The notes beneath the pieces were generated by a model, which was not told the origin of the DNA, ran no database searches, and was given only the letters and a program-made list of their open reading frames with translations. A program made the position numbers and the translations under genes. Positions 7,617-60,098 of a stretch of 64,000 bases of DNA are shown in pieces (position 1 is the stretch's first letter; each line of letters begins with the position of its first letter). Origin of the DNA: Planctomycetota bacterium (GTDB lineage Bacteria > Planctomycetota > SZUA-567 > JAKLDR01); the NCBI GenBank assembly GCA_022703445.1, contig JAKLDR010000001.1, forward strand, positions 107,846 to 171,845. Reading direction: 5' to 3'.

Positions 7617-8780
<1,164 letters not shown>

Positions 8781-9060
8781 CGCCGGCCATTATGCGCGGC
8801 CCCCGCCGGGGGTCAAGGAGACGGGCCCGGGGCATTGACAGACCGGCGCGGGCGCGGCAAGTTGTAGGCGAGCCCCGGGGCGGCGCGAAGCCCGGGGCGC
8901 TTCCTCTCCGGAACGTCCTCTTCCAGACTTATCGGCAGTCGGCCCGGCACTCCGGCGTCGGGGCGCATCGTGCGCCCCGGGCGGGGTCGCGGGGCAGCTT
9001 GCGGTCCGGGGGCCGGGCGGCGGATCGCCGGCCGGTCTCCGGAAGGCGGAGGCGCGGACG

Positions 9061-9678: not shown

Positions 9679-9850
9679 CGCCGGGGGCGGCGCGAAGATC
9701 GGCTATCGGCTTTCGGCCTTCGGAACAACGCTGACTTAACGTGCCGAAAGCCCAAAGCCGAATGCCGAAAGCCGGCCACGCCGTCCTTTCCGGAAGTATG
9801 GCTTGCACCACTTCCGGGTCCGGCGAGAATGCCGCCCGGAGGATCGCGCC

Positions 9851-11942: not shown

Positions 11943-12025
11943 TGCCCGGGGCGGGGATCGAACCCGCATGAGGTTGCCCTCACCGGTTTTTGAAACCGGC
12001 GCGTCTGCCGTTCCGCCACCCGGGC
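11943..12025 (-). tRNA. tRNA-Leu (anticodon CAA), type II with a long variable arm.
   Basis: Reverse-complement reads GCCCGGGTGGCGGAACGGCAGACGCGCCGGTTTCAAAAACCGGTGAGGGCAACCTCATGCGGGTTCGATCCCCGCCCCGGGCA. 7-bp acceptor stem, anticodon loop TTCAAAA, T-arm GCGGG/TTCGATC/CCCGC. Confidence 0.9.
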
Positions 12026-12087
12026 GACGCCGGCGGCTATCGTAAGCGGTGCGCGCACCGGCGCAAGTCGATTGGGAGCCCGATGCC

Positions 12088-12399
12088 TCGCGCCAAGCCG
12101 CCAAGACGCCAAGACGCCAAGAACGGCAGGGCTTTCACCGCGGAGGGCGCAGAGTCCCGCGGAGGACGGCAGGGAACGGAGAGGTGGCGCTGCTCTGCCG
12201 CTTCAGCTCCGAGCCGGCTCGGTCTGAAGCAGCAGTGCAGCTCCTCCGGGAGCCTGCGGCTCCCTGCGCGGCCACGGCCGCGCGCTTCCTCTCAACCCGA
12301 GGAAGCGCGAGCCCGGCGCAGCTGGGCTCTGGACTCTGCACCCTCCGCGGTGAAGAATCCCGGCCGTTGTTCTTGGCGCACTTGGCGGCTTGGCGCGAG
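12088..12399. repeat. Long-range inverted repeat built from tandem 'cgccaaga' octamers (12088-12126 versus 12365-12399), enclosing about 240 bp.
   Basis: Left arm is ctcgcgccaagccgccaagacgccaagacgccaagaacgg. Right arm reverse-complement is ctcgcgccaagccgccaagtgcgccaagaacaacgg. 19 nt are identical at the arm ends. Confidence 0.6.
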
Positions 12400-12422: not shown

Positions 12423-12450
12423 TTGCCCCGGCCCTCGGACGGCCTATAAT
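12423..12450 (+). promoter_or_regulatory. Sigma-70-like promoter candidate for alaS (TTGCCC-N16-TATAAT).
   Basis: -35 at 12423-12428 and -10 TATAAT at 12445-12450, about 40 bp upstream of the alaS ATG. A/T-rich hexamers are rare in this GC-rich DNA. Confidence 0.5.
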
Positions 12451-54742: not shown

Positions 54743-57577
54743 TCACTTGCCGCCGGCCACCCGCAGGCGCGCCGCGGCCCTGCGGCCGGTGACCGCGTCG
54801 CGGAGCTCCAGGCGCCAGGCGCCCGGGCGGTCGCTCTCGGCGAAGGGGATCTCCAGTTCGCCGCGGCCGCCTGCGGTGACCACGTTCTTCGAGTAGTGGC
54901 CGCACCACCGCCCCCGCGGGTCGTAGACGTCGACCCGCACCACGTGCCGGCCGGCGGCCGCGGCCGGGGCGGAGCCGAGCAGCACCTCCACCCGGGCGGT
55001 CGAGCGCGTCCGGGCCGGGCCCAGCGGCCGGGCGGTCAGCGCCGTCACCCGGTAGGGCAGCAGCGCCCAGAGGTTGGCGTCGTTCGGGTCGAAGCGCCCG
55101 GGGAAGGTGCGGACCAGCCCGTGGTAGCGGCCGGTCCGGGACTCGTAGACGTGCGCCGGAGCGGACAGCTCCACGGTCAGGGCCGACGGGCGGTTCATGG
55201 TGCGCAGGCCGATGGCCATCTCCTCGCCCACCCCGGTGGTCCGGCGCATGAAGTTGGCCACCGCCCCGACCAGCTGGACCGGGCCGGAGCCGAAGCGCAC
55301 CACCTCGGCGCCGGGCACCTGGCGGCGTCCGGTGCCGGAGCGGCCGTCGGCGGTCCAGAGGCTGACCCGGCGGCTGACCCCGCCCAGGGCGAGCGCGGCG
55401 GCGGCCAGCGTACGGGGGTGGTCGCCCCGGGGGGTGCCCGGGAAGCAGCGGCCCTGGAAGTAGTCGCGGAGCTCGGCGTTGAGGTAGACGGCCATGCCCC
55501 GCCCCACCAGCCGGACGACCAGCGCGGCGGCCTTTCCGGCCCGGCCGCAGGCGATGGCGTCCCCGGTCGCCCGCAGGGTCGGCTCGCAGCAGCGGACCGC
55601 CAGCCGGCCCTTGGGCAGACCCAGCGGGCCGCCGTCGCCGGGCACGTCGATGGCCGCCCCGGAGACGCGGTAGTCGAAGCGCTTCCGGCTGACTCCGAAG
55701 AAGTCGTCGAGCTGTCCCTCGGGCAGCATCCGGCAGTGCTCGTCCATCACCGCCGGGAGGGCGTCGGCGATGACCGTGCCGCCGGCCTCGGCGAAGGCGC
55801 GGACCGCGGCGCACTCCGCGGGGCTCATGGCCAGGGCGTGCGGCAGGACCAGGACCTTGAAGCCGTCCTTCTGCAGGGCGCCGGCGGCCAGCGCGTCGTA
55901 GGCCAGGAAGCGATACTGCAGCCCGAGGTCCTCGATCAGCTTGACGGTCGAGTCGCGCAGGTGGAAGAGGATGTCGTTCTCCTCGTTCTCGGTGTTGCCC
56001 GAGCTGCGGTCCACCCACTTCTCGCCCTCGGCCAGCGCCCCCATGAACCAGTGGGCCCGGACCGAGGCCTGGGAGTGGAGCACGGCGATCTCTCCGTCGA
56101 GCGCCTCCATGCCCAGGATCTGCTTGCCGATCCCGCCGGTGAGCTCGCGGAGCACCTTCCCGACCAGCCGCCCGGGGGCGGTGGGCCGCCCGCCCTTGCC
56201 GACGTAGGCCAGGTCCGGGTCCCAGTGGATCTGGCCGCAGTCGCCGTGGAAGAGTTGCTGCCACATCCGGGGGATGAGCACCTCGCGCATGGTCCGGACG
56301 TCGGCGCCGCCGAAGTACGGGGCCATCTTGAGGACCCGCGGCCGGAAGGAGCGGAGCATCTCGTCGTTCTGGTAGATGTTGTAGGGCACGTGCAGGTCGA
56401 CGGACCTGGCGATCTTGGCGAAGTCGAAGCCGCCGTGGGCCAGCGGGCCCTGGCCGCCGGTGGTGGCGTAGAGCGCGTTGGGGTCGGCGGCCCGGCCGAA
56501 CTCGCGCATCAGTGCGTACGTGCCGGTGACCACGTCGTCCATGAACTCGCGGTGATCGGCCCAGCTGGAGAGGTTGAAGTCCTTCTCGTGGGCCTGGCGG
56601 CGCAGGGTGTCGTCGGTGGTCCGGGGCACGACCTCGTGCCAGTGGCGGAACGCGGTGGCCCACTGGCGGTTCAGGGCAGCGAGCGTCCCGTAGCGCCTCT
56701 CCAGCCAGACCCGGAAGCGCTCCAGGCAGTGCTTGCAGTAGCAGAAGTCGAAGGGCGCGCCCTGGTCGCCGGTGCCGGCCTCGTCGGCCAGGTTGTAGAA
56801 GGCCGGGCGCACCGCCTTGTGCTGGAGCACGGTGTTGAGGATGCGCTCGCGCATCTTCTCCTGCACGCCGCGGTCCGAGGGGCAGCTGGCCCGCCAGAGG
56901 GTCTTGATGGCCTCGGCGTCGGAGGTCACCGACGCCCCGCCCAGGCGCTCGCGGGCGCGCTTGTAGCGCTGGCGGACCATGTCCCAGCAGAGCTGGAACC
57001 ATTTCTGGTTGGGGTTCTTGCTCGTCAGCTTCTCCGGCTTCTCCCAGTAGATCCAGTAGGGCCGGTGGTAGAGCGAGATCTCGTCGGGCGAGACCTGGTC
57101 GACGTAGCACTCGAAGTCGTTCTCGAGGACGTGGTCGAAGGGCTGGCGCTTGTAGACCATCATCCCGCCGATGCCCAGTTCGCGCAGCGTCCCGTAGCTG
57201 CCGTAGGGGTAGCGCGCCCAGGGGAAGACCAGGAACTCGTCCCAGGGCCCGACCGGCCGGGCCACCACGAAGCGCTCGCGGCAGGAGCGCTCCCCGGCGA
57301 GGTCGACCTCCAGCCAGTTGGCCATGGCCACCTGGCCTTCCGGCGCGAACTCGAACTCGAGCCAGCCCTTCTCGGCGCTCCAGCGGCCGGCGGTCGTGCG
57401 CACCGTGCGCCCGTAGCTGTCGGTCCAGACCACCCGGGCCGCGGCCGGCGGGCGGACGCCCGGCGGGTCGAACTCCACGTGGCCGGAGACGGTCTCGCCG
57501 CGGCGGAGGAAATCGCGATCCTGCTCCCAGCGGTAGAACCTGGGCTGCGTGTCGATGACCAGTTTCAGGGCCTTCAT
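54743..57577 (-). CDS. Glycoside hydrolase family 42-like beta-galactosidase, large multi-domain.
   Basis: Start MKALKLVIDTQ at 57577 with GGGAGA upstream. TIM-barrel and trimerisation-like regions (...GFKVLVLPHALAMSPAECAAVRAFAEAGGTVIAD...). The competing ORF 54453..57110 in another frame is R/G/P-rich. Confidence 0.75.
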   Translation of the reverse strand: MKALKLVIDTQPRFYRWEQDRDFLRRGETVSGHVEFDPPGVRPPAAARVVWTDSYGRTVRTTAGRWSAEKGWLEFEFAPEGQVAMANWLEVDLAGERSCRERFVVARPVGPWDEFLVFPWARYPYGSYGTLRELGIGGMMVYKRQPFDHVLENDFECYVDQVSPDEISLYHRPYWIYWEKPEKLTSKNPNQKWFQLCWDMVRQRYKRARERLGGASVTSDAEAIKTLWRASCPSDRGVQEKMRERILNTVLQHKAVRPAFYNLADEAGTGDQGAPFDFCYCKHCLERFRVWLERRYGTLAALNRQWATAFRHWHEVVPRTTDDTLRRQAHEKDFNLSSWADHREFMDDVVTGTYALMREFGRAADPNALYATTGGQGPLAHGGFDFAKIARSVDLHVPYNIYQNDEMLRSFRPRVLKMAPYFGGADVRTMREVLIPRMWQQLFHGDCGQIHWDPDLAYVGKGGRPTAPGRLVGKVLRELTGGIGKQILGMEALDGEIAVLHSQASVRAHWFMGALAEGEKWVDRSSGNTENEENDILFHLRDSTVKLIEDLGLQYRFLAYDALAAGALQKDGFKVLVLPHALAMSPAECAAVRAFAEAGGTVIADALPAVMDEHCRMLPEGQLDDFFGVSRKRFDYRVSGAAIDVPGDGGPLGLPKGRLAVRCCEPTLRATGDAIACGRAGKAAALVVRLVGRGMAVYLNAELRDYFQGRCFPGTPRGDHPRTLAAAALALGGVSRRVSLWTADGRSGTGRRQVPGAEVVRFGSGPVQLVGAVANFMRRTTGVGEEMAIGLRTMNRPSALTVELSAPAHVYESRTGRYHGLVRTFPGRFDPNDANLWALLPYRVTALTARPLGPARTRSTARVEVLLGSAPAAAAGRHVVRVDVYDPRGRWCGHYSKNVVTAGGRGELEIPFAESDRPGAWRLELRDAVTGRRAAARLRVAGGK

Positions 57578-57593
57578 CGGGTCTCCCTTCACG

Positions 57594-57725
57594 GGCTCAA
57601 CGCAGAGGACGCGGAGGCGCGCAGAGTGCGCAGAGGGCGACAACCGCAGGGGATCTTCCATGACAACAGGAAGAACGCCGTTTCCCCGCGGCCTCTGCGG
57701 ACCTCCGCGTCCTCTGCGTTGAGCC
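57594..57725. repeat. Palindromic element with 24-bp perfect terminal inverted repeats (ggctcaacgcagaggacgcggagg / cctccgcgtcctctgcgttgagcc) flanking an 84-nt partly self-complementary core. MITE-like or large RNA hairpin.
   Basis: Arms at 57594-57617 and 57702-57725. It fills the intergenic gap between the GH42 start (57577) and the nnr stop (57734). Shares a tcaacgcagag motif with the repeats at 58751-58795. Confidence 0.7.
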
Positions 57726-57733
57726 GTTCCTGA

Positions 57734-58684
57734 TCATTCGGGTTTTCGGTTCGCCGGACGCCGGGCTGGCAGCACCGACGTCGTGCGGTAGTTCTCGAAG
57801 GCCGCCGGGAGGCTCTCCACCAGGTCCCCGGCGATCATCGAGATCTGCCCGAACCTGCGGGCCGCCAGGTCGCCGGCCAGCCCATGGATGTGCGCGCCGA
57901 GCGCCCCGGCCTCGAAGTGGTCCAGGCGCTGGCCGACCAGGGCGGCCGAGACCCCGGTGAGCACGTCGCCGGAGCCGCCGGTGGCCATGCCCGGGTTGCC
58001 GGTGGCGTTGACGAACAGGCGGTCCTTCTCGGCCACCAGCGTGCCGGCGCCCTTCAGGAGCACCGCGAAGGCCTCGAAGCGCGCGGCGAACTCGGCCGCG
58101 ACGCCCTCGCGGTTCATCTGGACCTCGGCGGCGGTCTTGCCGACGAGCCGGCCCATCTCGCCGGGGTGCGGGGTGATCAGGGTCGGCCCCTTGCGCCCGG
58201 CGAAGTCCTTGGCCCGCCCGGAGAAGGCGTTCAGGCCGTCGGCGTCGACGATCAGCACGTGGTCGACCCGCTCGGCCAGCCCCCGGACGAAGGCGGCGGT
58301 CTCCTCGCCCTGGCCCAGGCCCGGCCCGACGGCCACCACGGTGCATTTCTCGGCGAACTTGAGGGCCGGCTCCAGGGCGCGCTCGGCCAGCGCCCCCCCG
58401 GAGGTCTCCGGAAGCGGCAGGGTCATGGCCTCGGTGAGCTTGCCGGCCATGATGGGGTAGAGGCTCTCCGGACAGCCGACGGTGACCAGCCCCGCTCCGG
58501 AGCGCAGCGCGCCCATGGCTGCCAGGCACCCGGCCCCGGCCATCCCGCGCGAGCCGGCGATGATGAAGACGTGCCCGAAGTCGCCCTTGTGGGCGTCCGG
58601 GCGGCGCTTGGGGAGCCGGGGCAGGTCGCGGACTTCCAGGCGGTTCACCCCGGCGATTGTATGAGGGGCCGGCGCGGGGCGCAA
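57734..58684 (-). CDS. nnr: ADP-dependent NAD(P)H-hydrate dehydratase (YjeF C-terminal / Nnr2 domain).
   Basis: GPGLGQG, TPHPGE and GSGDVLTG signature blocks. 316 aa. Confidence 0.8.
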   Translation of the reverse strand: MRPAPAPHTIAGVNRLEVRDLPRLPKRRPDAHKGDFGHVFIIAGSRGMAGAGCLAAMGALRSGAGLVTVGCPESLYPIMAGKLTEAMTLPLPETSGGALAERALEPALKFAEKCTVVAVGPGLGQGEETAAFVRGLAERVDHVLIVDADGLNAFSGRAKDFAGRKGPTLITPHPGEMGRLVGKTAAEVQMNREGVAAEFAARFEAFAVLLKGAGTLVAEKDRLFVNATGNPGMATGGSGDVLTGVSAALVGQRLDHFEAGALGAHIHGLAGDLAARRFGQISMIAGDLVESLPAAFENYRTTSVLPARRPANRKPE

Positions 58685-58750
58685 GTAAGGCGGGCGGAGG
58701 GCACGGCCATTGCAGGAATCGTCACGTGCTCCGTCTGCGGGTGCGCACTT

Positions 58751-58795
58751 TCAACGCAGAGACGCAGAGAGCGCAGAGAAGACGCAGAGAACAAC
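58751..58795. repeat. Tandem array of about four 'cgcagaga' octamers (tcaacgcagagacgcagagagcgcagagaagacgcagagaac) in an intergenic region.
   Basis: Direct repeats with a period of 8-9 nt. The leading tcaacgcagag is identical to the arm of the 57594 element. Confidence 0.6.
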
Positions 58796-58856
58796 GGCCC
58801 CGATCACCCATGGCCGCTTCGCACGCGGAGCGGACGGGTGTCCGGAAATGACCGCG

Positions 58857-58880
58857 GGCGGAGGGGTCGCCTCCGCCCGC
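58857..58880 (-). terminator. Hairpin gggcggagg-ggtcg-cctccgccc downstream of the CE7 esterase gene.
   Basis: 9-bp perfect stem about 25 nt after the minus-strand stop at 58901. No U-tract. Confidence 0.35.
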
Positions 58881-58900
58881 GATGACGCCGGGATGGGCTG

Positions 58901-59869
58901 CTAGCGCGTCAGCTCGCTCATGAACTCGAAGACCCGGTCGGACTGCCCGGGCAGGCCCTCGTGGCCGTAGTCCGGGTAGATGACCATCTCCTTCTTCGAG
59001 GCGATCTTGTTGTAGGCCGCGAACTGGGTGGACGGCGGGCAGATCGCGTCCATCAGCCCGGTGTGCATCTGGATGCGGGCCTGGATCCGCGGGGCCAGGT
59101 GCTGGCAGTCGATGTAGCCCAGGCGCGTGAAGATCTCGTCCTCGCGCTCGTGGAGCGGGTCGAACAGCCGGAAGAAGGCCCGCAGCTCCTCGTAGGCGTC
59201 CTTGGCCAGGTCCATCTCCCAGACCCGGCGGTAGTCGCACAGGAACGGGAAGACCGGCGCGGCGAGCTTCACCCGCGGCTCGAGCGCGGCGCAGGCCAGG
59301 GTCAGGCCCCCGCCCTGCGAACCGCCGGTGGCGCCCAGCCGCTGCGGGTCGACCTCGGGCATCTTCAGGACGATGTCGGCCAGCTCCGCGGTGTCCAGGT
59401 AGATCTGCCGGAAGAGCAGCTTCTCGGGCGAGTCGGCCAGCCCGCGGACGATGTGCCCGCGCAGGGTGTTGCCGACCACTCCGCCGACGTCCTCGCTCTT
59501 GCCGCCCTGTCCGCGGCAGTCCAGCGCCGCGACGGCGAAGCCCTGGGCCACCCAGCCGAGCTTGCTGCTCCACTCGCCGGCGTTCCCGGAGTAGCCGTGG
59601 AACATGAGCAGCGCCGGGCAGGAGCGCTTCTTCGCGCCCTTCGGCCGCATGAACTGGGCGTGCACCCGGGCCCCGCCCACGCCGGTGAAGTAGAGGTTGA
59701 AGCACTCGGCGAAGCCGGTCGGCAGCTTGTGGGGCACCAACTCCACCTGGGGGTCGACCGCGCGCATCTCGGCCAGCGAGTTGTCCCAGAAGGCGTCGAA
59801 GTCCTTGGGGCGGGGGTTCGTGCCCTTGTATTCCTTGAGCTTGGCCAGGGGCATGTCCAGGACGGGCAT
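58901..59869 (-). CDS. Acetyl xylan esterase / cephalosporin-C deacetylase (CE7 family).
   Basis: Catalytic GGSQGGGL (GxSxG) and a C-terminal ...YPDYGHEG His. N-terminus MPVLDMPLAKLKEYKGTNPRPKDFDAFW is typical of CE7. Confidence 0.85.
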   Translation of the reverse strand: MPVLDMPLAKLKEYKGTNPRPKDFDAFWDNSLAEMRAVDPQVELVPHKLPTGFAECFNLYFTGVGGARVHAQFMRPKGAKKRSCPALLMFHGYSGNAGEWSSKLGWVAQGFAVAALDCRGQGGKSEDVGGVVGNTLRGHIVRGLADSPEKLLFRQIYLDTAELADIVLKMPEVDPQRLGATGGSQGGGLTLACAALEPRVKLAAPVFPFLCDYRRVWEMDLAKDAYEELRAFFRLFDPLHEREDEIFTRLGYIDCQHLAPRIQARIQMHTGLMDAICPPSTQFAAYNKIASKKEMVIYPDYGHEGLPGQSDRVFEFMSELTR

Positions 59870-59957
59870 CGGCGTTCTCCCGTGAGGTGCTCCGCAGACT
59901 GTGCGGATGCGATGGGCGTCATTCTACGACGCGGGCGAAACCTTGCCAGGAAGAACG

Positions 59958-60030
59958 GGTGGGAGGTTGGAGGTTGGGGGTTGGGGGTGGAGGGGCGAGG
60001 GGGTGGGTTCGTCGGGGTTCCTGGGGGCTC
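59958..60030 (+). repeat. G-tract-rich segment (gggaggttggaggttgggggttgggggtggaggggcgagggggtgggttcgtcgggg) with G-quadruplex potential.
   Basis: More than eight runs of G3-5 on the plus strand, about 90-160 bp upstream of the minus-strand CE7 start. Confidence 0.55.
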
Positions 60031-60037
60031 CAGCCTC

Positions 60038-60098
60038 CGGCCTGCAGCCTACAGCCTACAGCCTACAGCCTGCAGTCTCCCGCCTACAGCCTGCCGTC
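60038..60098. repeat. Tandem heptanucleotide repeat (cagccta/cagcctg, about 6 units) in the CE7 esterase upstream region.
   Basis: cctgcagcctacagcctacagcctacagcctgcagtctcccgcctacagcctgcc. Confidence 0.65.

Follow-up and report, generated by a model that had tools for sequence, protein, structure and literature searches.

Introduction

E3 is a 132-bp palindromic element that lies between nnr and a GH42 gene in 64,000 nucleotides of a Planctomycetota bacterium (GenBank assembly GCA_022703445.1, contig JAKLDR010000001.1, positions 107,846 to 171,845); this whole stretch is called the window, and coordinates given without a locus name are window positions. The kind of element that E3 represents, the small extragenic palindromic repeat, is already known, and class-A, the unnamed family defined here to which its arms belong, is not categorically new. 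A class-A arm consists of 3 to 5 tandem CRCNRAK units with a spacing of 8-10 nt behind a short head. It is probable, at roughly 60%, that E3 is a derivative, without an open reading frame (ORF), of a widespread GxxExxY-type palindromic cassette, and that it would act in the nnr-GH42 transcript in the manner of a repetitive extragenic palindromic (REP) sequence.

Several described systems resemble E3. The MITEs of bacteria (miniature inverted-repeat transposable elements), such as Correia/NEMIS, ERIC and Nezha, share with it terminal inverted repeats, a small size, a non-coding and intergenic nature and presence/absence polymorphism. Integron attC sites, whose R''/R' consensus is RYYYAAC/GTTRRRY, are imperfect palindromes that stand right after an ORF, and the ends of E3 (GCTCAAC...GTTGAGC) fit this consensus. 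In 23S rRNA intervening sequences, a small ORF lies between inverted repeats whose arms can form a long stem by pairing, and such a stem would suit RNase III as a natural substrate. The GxxExxY cassettes can be likened to them by description, not by sequence, as complementary arms surround a small ORF in both, whereas the intervening sequences carry a four-helix-bundle 'S23p' ORF rather than GxxExxY and reside inside rRNA genes.

REP sequences, 20-40-bp palindromes of which one end has an unpaired tag, GTAG or CGTC, resemble E3, together with the derived BIME (bacterial interspersed mosaic element) and REPIN (REP doublet) arrangements, in being small non-coding palindromes just downstream of coding regions, and resemble class-A elements in lying within unidirectional or convergent gene pairs, probably forming RNA hairpins, occurring as inverted pairs and undergoing gain and loss among related organisms (Di Nocera et al. 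2013, PMC3733652). The cyanobacterial short tandemly repeated repetitive (STRR) sequences and the GGGAATC arrays of Xanthomonas and GGGGAYT arrays of Nostoc are, like class-A, intergenic tandem arrays of short units that form inverted stem-loop pairs near the 3' end of the upstream ORF and turn over in length and sequence between related species (PMC4692102). These arrays keep a strict 7-nt period, reach 14-26 units and are G-rich, quadruplex-prone and lineage-specific; class-A differs from them in its 8-10-nt spacing, its 3-5 units, its conserved head, its pan-bacterial occurrence and its association with a gene.

Structure of E3

The first-pass annotation of this DNA had described a non-coding palindromic repeat element of 132 bp with perfect 24-bp arms between the nnr stop codon and the GH42 start, and this element was recovered as follows.

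57594..57725, no strand assigned: E3 palindromic element, 132 bp, from repeat search and folding
57594..57631, + strand: left arm, head GGCTCAA and then CGCAGAG-GA-CGCGGAG-GCG-CGCAGAG-TG-CGC, perfectly matched with its partner over 57594-57617
57688..57725, - strand: right arm, reading on the - strand GGCTCAA-CGCAGAG-GA-CGCGGAG-GTC-CGCAGAG
57632..57687, no strand assigned: interior, with a small secondary hairpin GGGGATCTTCC...GGAAGA...CCCC

The 24-mer GGCTCAACGCAGAGGACGCGGAGG occurs in two exact copies in the window, at 57594-57617 (+) and 57702-57725 (-), against a chance expectation of 0 (100 shuffles, up to 3 mismatches). The inverted repeat as a whole extends over 38 nt at 89% complementarity, its arms being separated by 56 nt, and the lineage-specific motif GACAACCGC / GCGGTTGTC in the interior adjoins the arms. 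Both strands were folded, as the annotation had suggested, and either strand gave a single long hairpin; the RNA fold energies were -94.9 kcal/mol (z-score, z -9.0) for the + strand and -99.2 kcal/mol (z -8.8) for the - strand, and the DNA fold had an energy of -60.7 kcal/mol (z -9.9).

The arms consist of tandem units of about 9 nt (CGCAGAGGA, CGCGGAGGCG, CGCAGAGTG and CGCAGAGGG), that is, of CGCRGAG repeated 3-4 times behind a TCAA head. The seed TCAACGCAGAG has three exact copies in the window, two of them in the E3 arms and the third at 58751, where a related array, E4, is located. When the window was searched with a generic class-A pattern of at least 3 CRCNRAK units, 6 arrays corresponding to 3 elements were found, as against 0.05 in shuffles; the array coordinates are 57601-57635 (+) and 57693-57718 (-) for E3 and 58755-58789 for E4.

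Class-A arms occur in most bacterial phyla

The arm sequence is widespread and is present in hundreds of unrelated contigs of most bacterial phyla. Two patterns were used for the searches, a three-unit pattern (CGCAGAG N1-3 CGCRGAG N1-3 CGCAGAG) and a 26-nt pattern derived from the arm of E3, with 23 fixed bases, one R and two N. The three-unit pattern gave at least 120 matches in the species genomes of GTDB; the phyla among the matches listed include Acidobacteriota, Planctomycetota, Verrucomicrobiota/Kiritimatiellia, Cyanobacteria, Chloroflexota, Bacteroidota and Proteobacteria (all major classes) as well as Firmicutes, Gemmatimonadota, Nitrospirota, Elusimicrobia, Cloacimonadota and others. 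The same pattern had at least 120 matches in viral contigs of IMG/VR, and the 26-nt E3-arm pattern had at least 120 in metagenomes, on unrelated contigs of 40-75% GC content. The first-pass annotation had supposed a family of extragenic elements; a dispersed family does exist, but it is not specific to one genome.

The arms of this family have a common anatomy. The head before the first unit, which makes up the stem base, has the consensus TTNAC in 128 arrays, the corresponding bases being CTCAA in E3 and TTCAA in E4, and the commonest heads in 601 arrays are TTCAA and TTCAC, although TTCAA is inflated there by the metagenome pattern, which demanded AA before the first unit. Each array has 3-5 units and an A/G-rich tail behind the last one. 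A facing complementary array accompanies 45-59% of the arrays, the remainder being solo like E4, and the loops of the hairpins cluster at 5-53 nt and at 63-121 nt. The facing of two arms that characterises the family is seen in E3, at a distance of 56 nt, and not in E4. In the fetched loci, CGCAAAG, CGCCAAG, CACGAAG, CACAGAG, CACAGAT and CACGGAG serve as alternative units behind the same kind of head. The conserved thing is the unit, and a stem that is perfect over 24 bp, as in E3, is not usual in the class-A family.

The inner motif ACAACGG/CCGTTGT was considered as a family feature and was ruled out; it is present in 26 of the 601 arrays and is therefore lineage-specific.

Other arrangements of class-A arms were also observed. 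Three loci (L120:3133-3560, L215:1340-1700 and L246) contain tandem repeats of 124-130 nt with one class-A array or hairpin each, in the manner of a satellite-like amplification. Three soil metagenome loci (L165, L178 and L200) have in common a GC-rich sequence of ~70 nt, GCGAGCGGAGCGGGATTCACTCCCGCGGAGCGAGCGGGG...GCACCCCCCAG, inside or beside class-A arms, possibly a further dispersed repeat nested in class-A hairpins. Among array-rich IMG/VR contigs, hairpins recur every ~3.3 kb in L252 and L281, 13 kb of L317 contain six arrays on the same strand, and L313 has a single long array with a 24-nt period at the contig end.

Full-length relatives carry a GxxExxY gene between the arms

Full-length relatives hold a gene for a GxxExxY protein of about 120 aa (PD-(D/E)XK-like, PF13366) between the same arms, and short forms hold only a loop. 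An ORF of this kind was found inside eight of the nine arm pairs that are 379-513 nt apart, the exception being L101, and three additional arm pairs also enclose a GxxExxY gene. Three of the enclosed ORFs matched TIGR04256 (E 7e-40 to 9e-36) and two matched PF13366, PDDEXK_3 (E 2.5e-40 and 1e-38); the remaining ones were identified by tblastn. Arrays bracketed all 12 of the 12 GxxExxY genes in the fetched loci (~1.5 Mb), one of them with CGCGGATGAA units.

Since the fetched loci had been chosen via arrays, the test was repeated from the protein side with the best 120 database homologues of one GxxExxY protein. An N-terminal extension reading MNRRGAENAE, MNRQDAKNAK, MNREDAKDAK or MNHEDTKDTK was present in 98 of these 120 proteins, and such extensions are the in-frame readings of AAC followed by CGCAGAG, CGCCAAG, CGCGAAG or CACGAAG arrays; in other words, the arrays are routinely misread as protein N-termini. 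One protein-selected locus that was read directly had the structure TGAAC(CGCCAAG)3 - ORF - (CTTGGCG)3GTTCA. The unit type tracks the protein tree, in that 77 of 98 proteins had a nearest neighbour of their own type as against 26% by chance (alignment-based), and it still switches between GxxExxY proteins that are ~80% identical.

PF13366/TIGR04256 (PDDEXK_3) is listed as a family of unknown function with multiple transfers between divisions (PMC3424549). The GxxExxY protein had no relative in the PDB by sequence, and its AlphaFold2 model reached a predicted local distance difference test (pLDDT) score of only 68, with nothing below E = 2 in a Foldseek comparison with the PDB.

ORF-less forms constitute most class-A members. 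E3 is assigned to them because its interior is 56 nt long and no GxxExxY gene lies in the window.

Cassettes may also be nested: the one at L205 (545-665 and 1150-1260) has outer arms (GGCGGAACTACGGAAAG)n and inner arms (CGCAGAG)3 around its GxxExxY gene, and the nesting is as in E2, a further palindrome of the window.

No description of class-A arrays or of their link to GxxExxY genes was found in the literature searched, which does not extend to most subscription journals, and the pattern may be familiar to database curators. The array sequences appear in no paper of that literature, GxxExxY/PDDEXK_3 has incidental mentions only, and the general repeat literature is represented there by REP and heptamer-repeat papers only. 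A named and modelled family would give a testable functional context for the large orphan family PF13366/TIGR04256, and, as the arrays adjoin genes in most bacterial phyla, they are also a matter for annotation.

Gene context and history of the nnr-GH42 locus

On the minus strand, AXE1, nnr and GH42 follow one another in one row.

57734..58648, - strand: nnr, NAD(P)H-hydrate dehydratase (Carb_kinase), 304 aa, upstream neighbour of E3
54743..57577, - strand: GH42 beta-galactosidase-family gene, 944 aa, downstream neighbour of E3
58901-59869, - strand: AXE1 esterase, from public-contig gene calls
L127:4455-4500, L128:4455-4500, L371:960-1000 and L373:1460-1500: nnr promoter-like motif in relatives

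E3 begins 8 nt past the nnr stop codon (57734-57736) and ends 16 nt before the GH42 start (57577), and its stem ends 5 nt before the GH42 Shine-Dalgarno (SD) sequence AAGGGAGA at 57583-57590. These nnr and GH42 boundaries agree with the gene calls of six public contigs from digester-type metagenomes, which are 99.96-100% identical over the region and provide no usable strain polymorphism at the locus. A longer GH42 ORF from the in-frame ATG at 57661 would run through half of E3; gene callers place the start at 57577, the one with the SD sequence. The source organism has a GC content of ~70%. Immediately 5' of the nnr GTG start, at 58650-58700 of the window, there is a promoter-like sequence, CTTGCG followed after ~17 nt by CATACAAT/TAGAAT, and this motif is kept in all relatives whether a hairpin lies upstream or not.

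Six relatives were gathered through NnrD. In L127 (84% NnrD identity), the nnr-GH42 pair is kept and a copy of E3 is homologous along its whole length (L127:5425-5558). Its arms have drifted, the left arm having CGCAGAG twice and the right arm CTCCGCG twice, and A.C mismatches result on the sense strand. E3 is absent in four relatives that keep nnr-GH42, namely L128 (85%), L373 (73%), L130 (71%) and L371 (69%), in which the spacers are 44, 32, 57 and 61 nt long, respectively. The simplest reading of these sequences is a single gain of E3 in the lineage of the source organism and L127, from an ancestral spacer of 32-61 nt. The empty sites of the relatives are too diverged from the E3 site for the boundaries of the element to be placed.

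L127 contains an extra class-A hairpin at 302-411, with arms CGCCGAGG/CGCGGAGG/CGCAGAG, upstream of a gene for a phosphoenolpyruvate (PEP)-utilising enzyme, and the family is therefore multi-copy in the L127 lineage.

The class-A elements at large were examined for their placement between genes. The 47 intergenic hairpins are distributed over 33 tandem, 11 convergent and 3 divergent gene pairs, as compared with 59% tandem, 20% convergent and 21% divergent among background spacers, and the upstream stop codon is a median of 16 nt away. E3 (8 nt) and a heptamer hairpin at 9695 (17 nt) agree with this placement.

Origin and expected effect of E3

The origin of E3 was weighed against four other explanations. 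One of them is a hairpin made locally, in which an array produced by slippage was duplicated in inverted orientation and kept for the termination or stability of the nnr transcript, the similarity across genomes being convergent. Strict heptamer arrays with other units do make similar hairpins in the window (9695-9775 and 59950-60098), inverted heptamer arrays lie near ORF 3' ends in Xanthomonas and Nostoc (PMC4692102), the units at the E4 site have changed in concert between relatives (CATCTGTG in L127/L128 against CTCTGCG here), and the placement right behind stop codons fits. On the other hand, slippage should give variable lengths and the arrays have 3-5 units only, the 26-nt pattern including the head recurs on at least 120 unrelated metagenome contigs, the head is conserved across phyla, and the arrays are consistently tied to a single gene family; nor does a U-tract follow the sense-strand stem. 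We therefore regard a local origin as unlikely. A classical MITE would descend from an insertion sequence by deletion and be mobilised in trans by a DDE transposase with the tandem subterminal units as its binding sites. It would account for the terminal inverted repeats, the small size, the lack of an ORF and the presence or absence at orthologous sites, and multiple short repeated motifs in the ends are known binding sites in other transposons. However, a flanking direct repeat of at least 3 bp, as expected for a target-site duplication, was found in none of 91 class-A elements, 2-bp repeats numbering 9 against 6 expected; the inverted repeats of class-A are internally tandem; and a single unit across most phyla would be unusual for a MITE dependent on an insertion sequence. 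No transposase-bearing parent was seen: the interiors read of arm pairs 180-520 nt apart contained no transposase-sized ORF and had nothing or GxxExxY only. The 120-aa PD-(D/E)XK-like protein is the sole recurrent cargo. Interior ORFs of arm pairs up to ~1.9 kb apart were listed and not scanned; one of these, in L197 (arms 1,740 nt apart), has 357 aa and would be long enough for a transposase. The label of MITE given by the first-pass annotation could not be upheld on these grounds, and this origin is distinctly unlikely.

A dedicated cis-regulatory RNA that serves the GH42 gene or operon, for example as an attenuator or a switch in the 5'-untranslated region (5'-UTR), would be consistent with the very stable fold and with the short distance between the stem and the SD sequence. 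Since four relatives with the same gene pair lack E3, however, it is unlikely to be a dedicated 5'-UTR regulator of GH42, as the annotation had also proposed; moreover, the sense stem of L127 carries A.C mismatches where G.U pairs form only on the antisense strand, class-A elements stand beside unrelated genes everywhere, and the family has no strand bias, the sense strand being the more stable in 24 and the antisense strand in 22 of 46 co-directional hairpins (p = 0.67). RNA-level strand selection on class-A hairpins was rejected accordingly, sense and antisense folds being equally stable. With Rfam 15, only a tRNA passed the gathering score in the window and nothing did at E3; with E relaxed to 10, the only matches were sub-threshold look-alikes of microRNA precursor hairpins. 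A regulator of this kind is thus very improbable. As for the bidirectional terminator of the first-pass annotation, the sense-strand stem is followed by CGUGAAGGGAGACCCGAUG without the U-tract of a canonical intrinsic terminator, and a terminator scan was silent at E3. Mobilisation as a REP or REPIN by a REP-associated tyrosine transposase (RAYT), or an origin as an integron attC site, is scarcely tenable. E3 is palindromic and extragenic and class-A elements lie downstream of ORFs in tandem and convergent pairs, as REPs do (PMC3733652), and the ends of E3 fit the attC consensus as noted above. In contrast to a REP, E3 has no unpaired GTAG/CGTC tag beside its stem (the flanks read ...CTTCACGG/GCTCAAC and GTTGAGCC/GTTCCTG), its arms have 3-5 tandem 8-10-nt units, it measures 132 bp instead of 20-40 bp, and class-A, with gene-bearing members of up to ~500 bp between arms and a GxxExxY/PDDEXK_3 cargo, crosses phyla, unlike REP families, most of which are confined to a lineage; the annotation's term REP-like does not hold in its strict sense. 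Unlike attC, the predicted stem of E3 is a perfect 24-bp duplex with neither extrahelical bases nor an unpaired central spacer, most class-A heads (TTCAC, CTCAC, TCTCG) fall outside RYYYAAC, and class-A elements stand singly between housekeeping genes rather than in cassette arrays.

Several observations count against the preferred derivation of E3 from a GxxExxY cassette. The 24-nt E3 arm, for which the annotation had proposed a search, has no further copy within 64 kb at up to 3 mismatches. A GxxExxY gene was detected by tblastn neither in the window nor in the relatives' loci, so that a helper acting in trans is only putative for the source genome. The GxxExxY copy that was tracked sat at one fixed locus in 24 of 24 Fischerella contigs read, a placement that gives no direct hint that it moved recently. 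Cyanobacterial GxxExxY cassettes share a promoter-like stretch, GGAAGGACTTTWATAAATTTTGCCACA, ~40-60 nt outside the left arm (L093:3210-3330; L374:2455-2500), so that the inherited unit may exceed the palindrome and the arms may not be its ends. An arm resembles its own partner (similarity 0.73) little more than the arms of other elements (0.69), and the units themselves may count more than the hairpin. The positional statistics given above rest on crude ORF-based gene calls, and the roles of E3 towards exonucleases, RNase III and ribosomes, set out below, are inferred from its likeness to REPs.

The following effects would be expected of E3. It is probably transcribed together with nnr and GH42, because it lies between two co-directional genes. 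The RNA would form a long, nearly perfect duplex of about -95 to -99 kcal/mol from 8 nt past the nnr stop codon, which may stop 3' exonucleases, is a likely substrate of RNase III and may hinder the ribosome as it terminates. Each of these effects, singly or together, would uncouple the expression of nnr and GH42 rather than control GH42 specifically. The local consequence is modest, E3 being a probable post-transcriptional uncoupler of the two genes. The class-A family would add REP-like operon punctuation to phyla in which none has been described, for example Planctomycetota and Acidobacteriota.

Without target-site duplication and without strand bias, the class-A family behaves as a palindrome at the DNA level. 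We would guess that it spreads when arms recombine or undergo gene conversion with one another, perhaps with the help of the GxxExxY nuclease, and not by cut-and-paste transposition. It is a tentative idea, less probable than the derivation of E3 itself, that class-A arms and GxxExxY together make up a pan-bacterial selfish cassette not described before, also present in viral contigs, that is spread and homogenised by nuclease-promoted hairpin recombination or gene conversion and has left thousands of ORF-less hairpins after stop codons, in operon transcripts.

E4 and other repeats of the window

The features of the window that concern E4 and the further palindrome E2 are as follows.

58751..58800, + strand: E4 solo arm, TCAA + 4 x CGCAGAGA-type units + AACAACGGCC
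58853..58881, no strand assigned: perfect 12-bp GC hairpin, ~20 nt past the AXE1 stop codon and separate from E4
12087..12399, no strand assigned: E2 nested palindrome, 313 nt, outer arms (CGCCAAGN)4 and inner arms TTCACCGCGGAGGGCGCAGAGTCC at 12134-12157 / 12331-12354

The first-pass annotation had reported, 1.1 kb from E3, a tandem array of four octamers with the same seed as the E3 arms. Both the seed at 58751 and the four CGCAGAGA units, which begin at 58755, 58763, 58772 and 58783, are indeed there, the array proper covering 58751-58790; only two other copies of the octamer occur elsewhere in the 64 kb. On the nnr-sense strand, E4 reads GGCCGTTGTT(CTCTGCG)4TTGA. It has no fold of its own and lies in the 252-nt AXE1-nnr spacer, downstream of the 58853-58881 hairpin and upstream of the CTTGCG...CATACAAT promoter-like motif.

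At the equivalent site of L127 and L128 there is a full hairpin, built of CACAGATG-type units and including the inner motif GCCGTTGT, which is also present in E4, while the window, in the same orientation, has GCCGTTGTT(CTCTGCG)4TTGA without the left arm. In the more distant relatives, a hairpin upstream of nnr is lacking. Because L127 and L128 hold the full hairpin there, E4 is read as the single surviving arm of a former hairpin: the name of tandem array is correct as to the four units, but E4 looks like a solo arm. The units at this site differ in concert, being CATCTGTG in L127/L128 and CTCTGCG in the window, and units thus change in concert within an array. Concerted switching of units in both arms is an unexplained evolutionary behaviour that deserves a mechanism.

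E2 was found by a cluster search and folds at -237 kcal/mol (z -13.5). It combines inner CGCGGAG/CGCAGAG arms with three small central hairpins and has a tRNA gene (11943-12025, -) on one side and a + strand gene on the other; the TATAAT box of the latter, at 12446, comes after E2.

Heptamer repeats were observed at three further places. In a probable coding region (7617-8789, -), adjoining heptamer runs, (CCAGTTC)4 and (GAACCYT)4, occupy 7848-7920, and their fold was not significant (z -0.5 and -0.9). At 9695-9775, inverted heptamer arrays (ATCGGCT/TTCGGCC versus GCCGAAA x4) form a hairpin with z of -3.3 and -4.6, 17 nt past a stop codon, and represent a second class of tandem-unit hairpins with a strict 7-nt period. 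At 59950-60098, G-rich GGTTGGR heptamers stand opposite C-rich CAGCCTA and pair via G.U on the + strand only, with fold energies of -78 (+) versus -47 kcal/mol, and the flanking genes are both on the - strand; these heptamers could be an antisense RNA, G-quadruplex-prone DNA or a product of chance.

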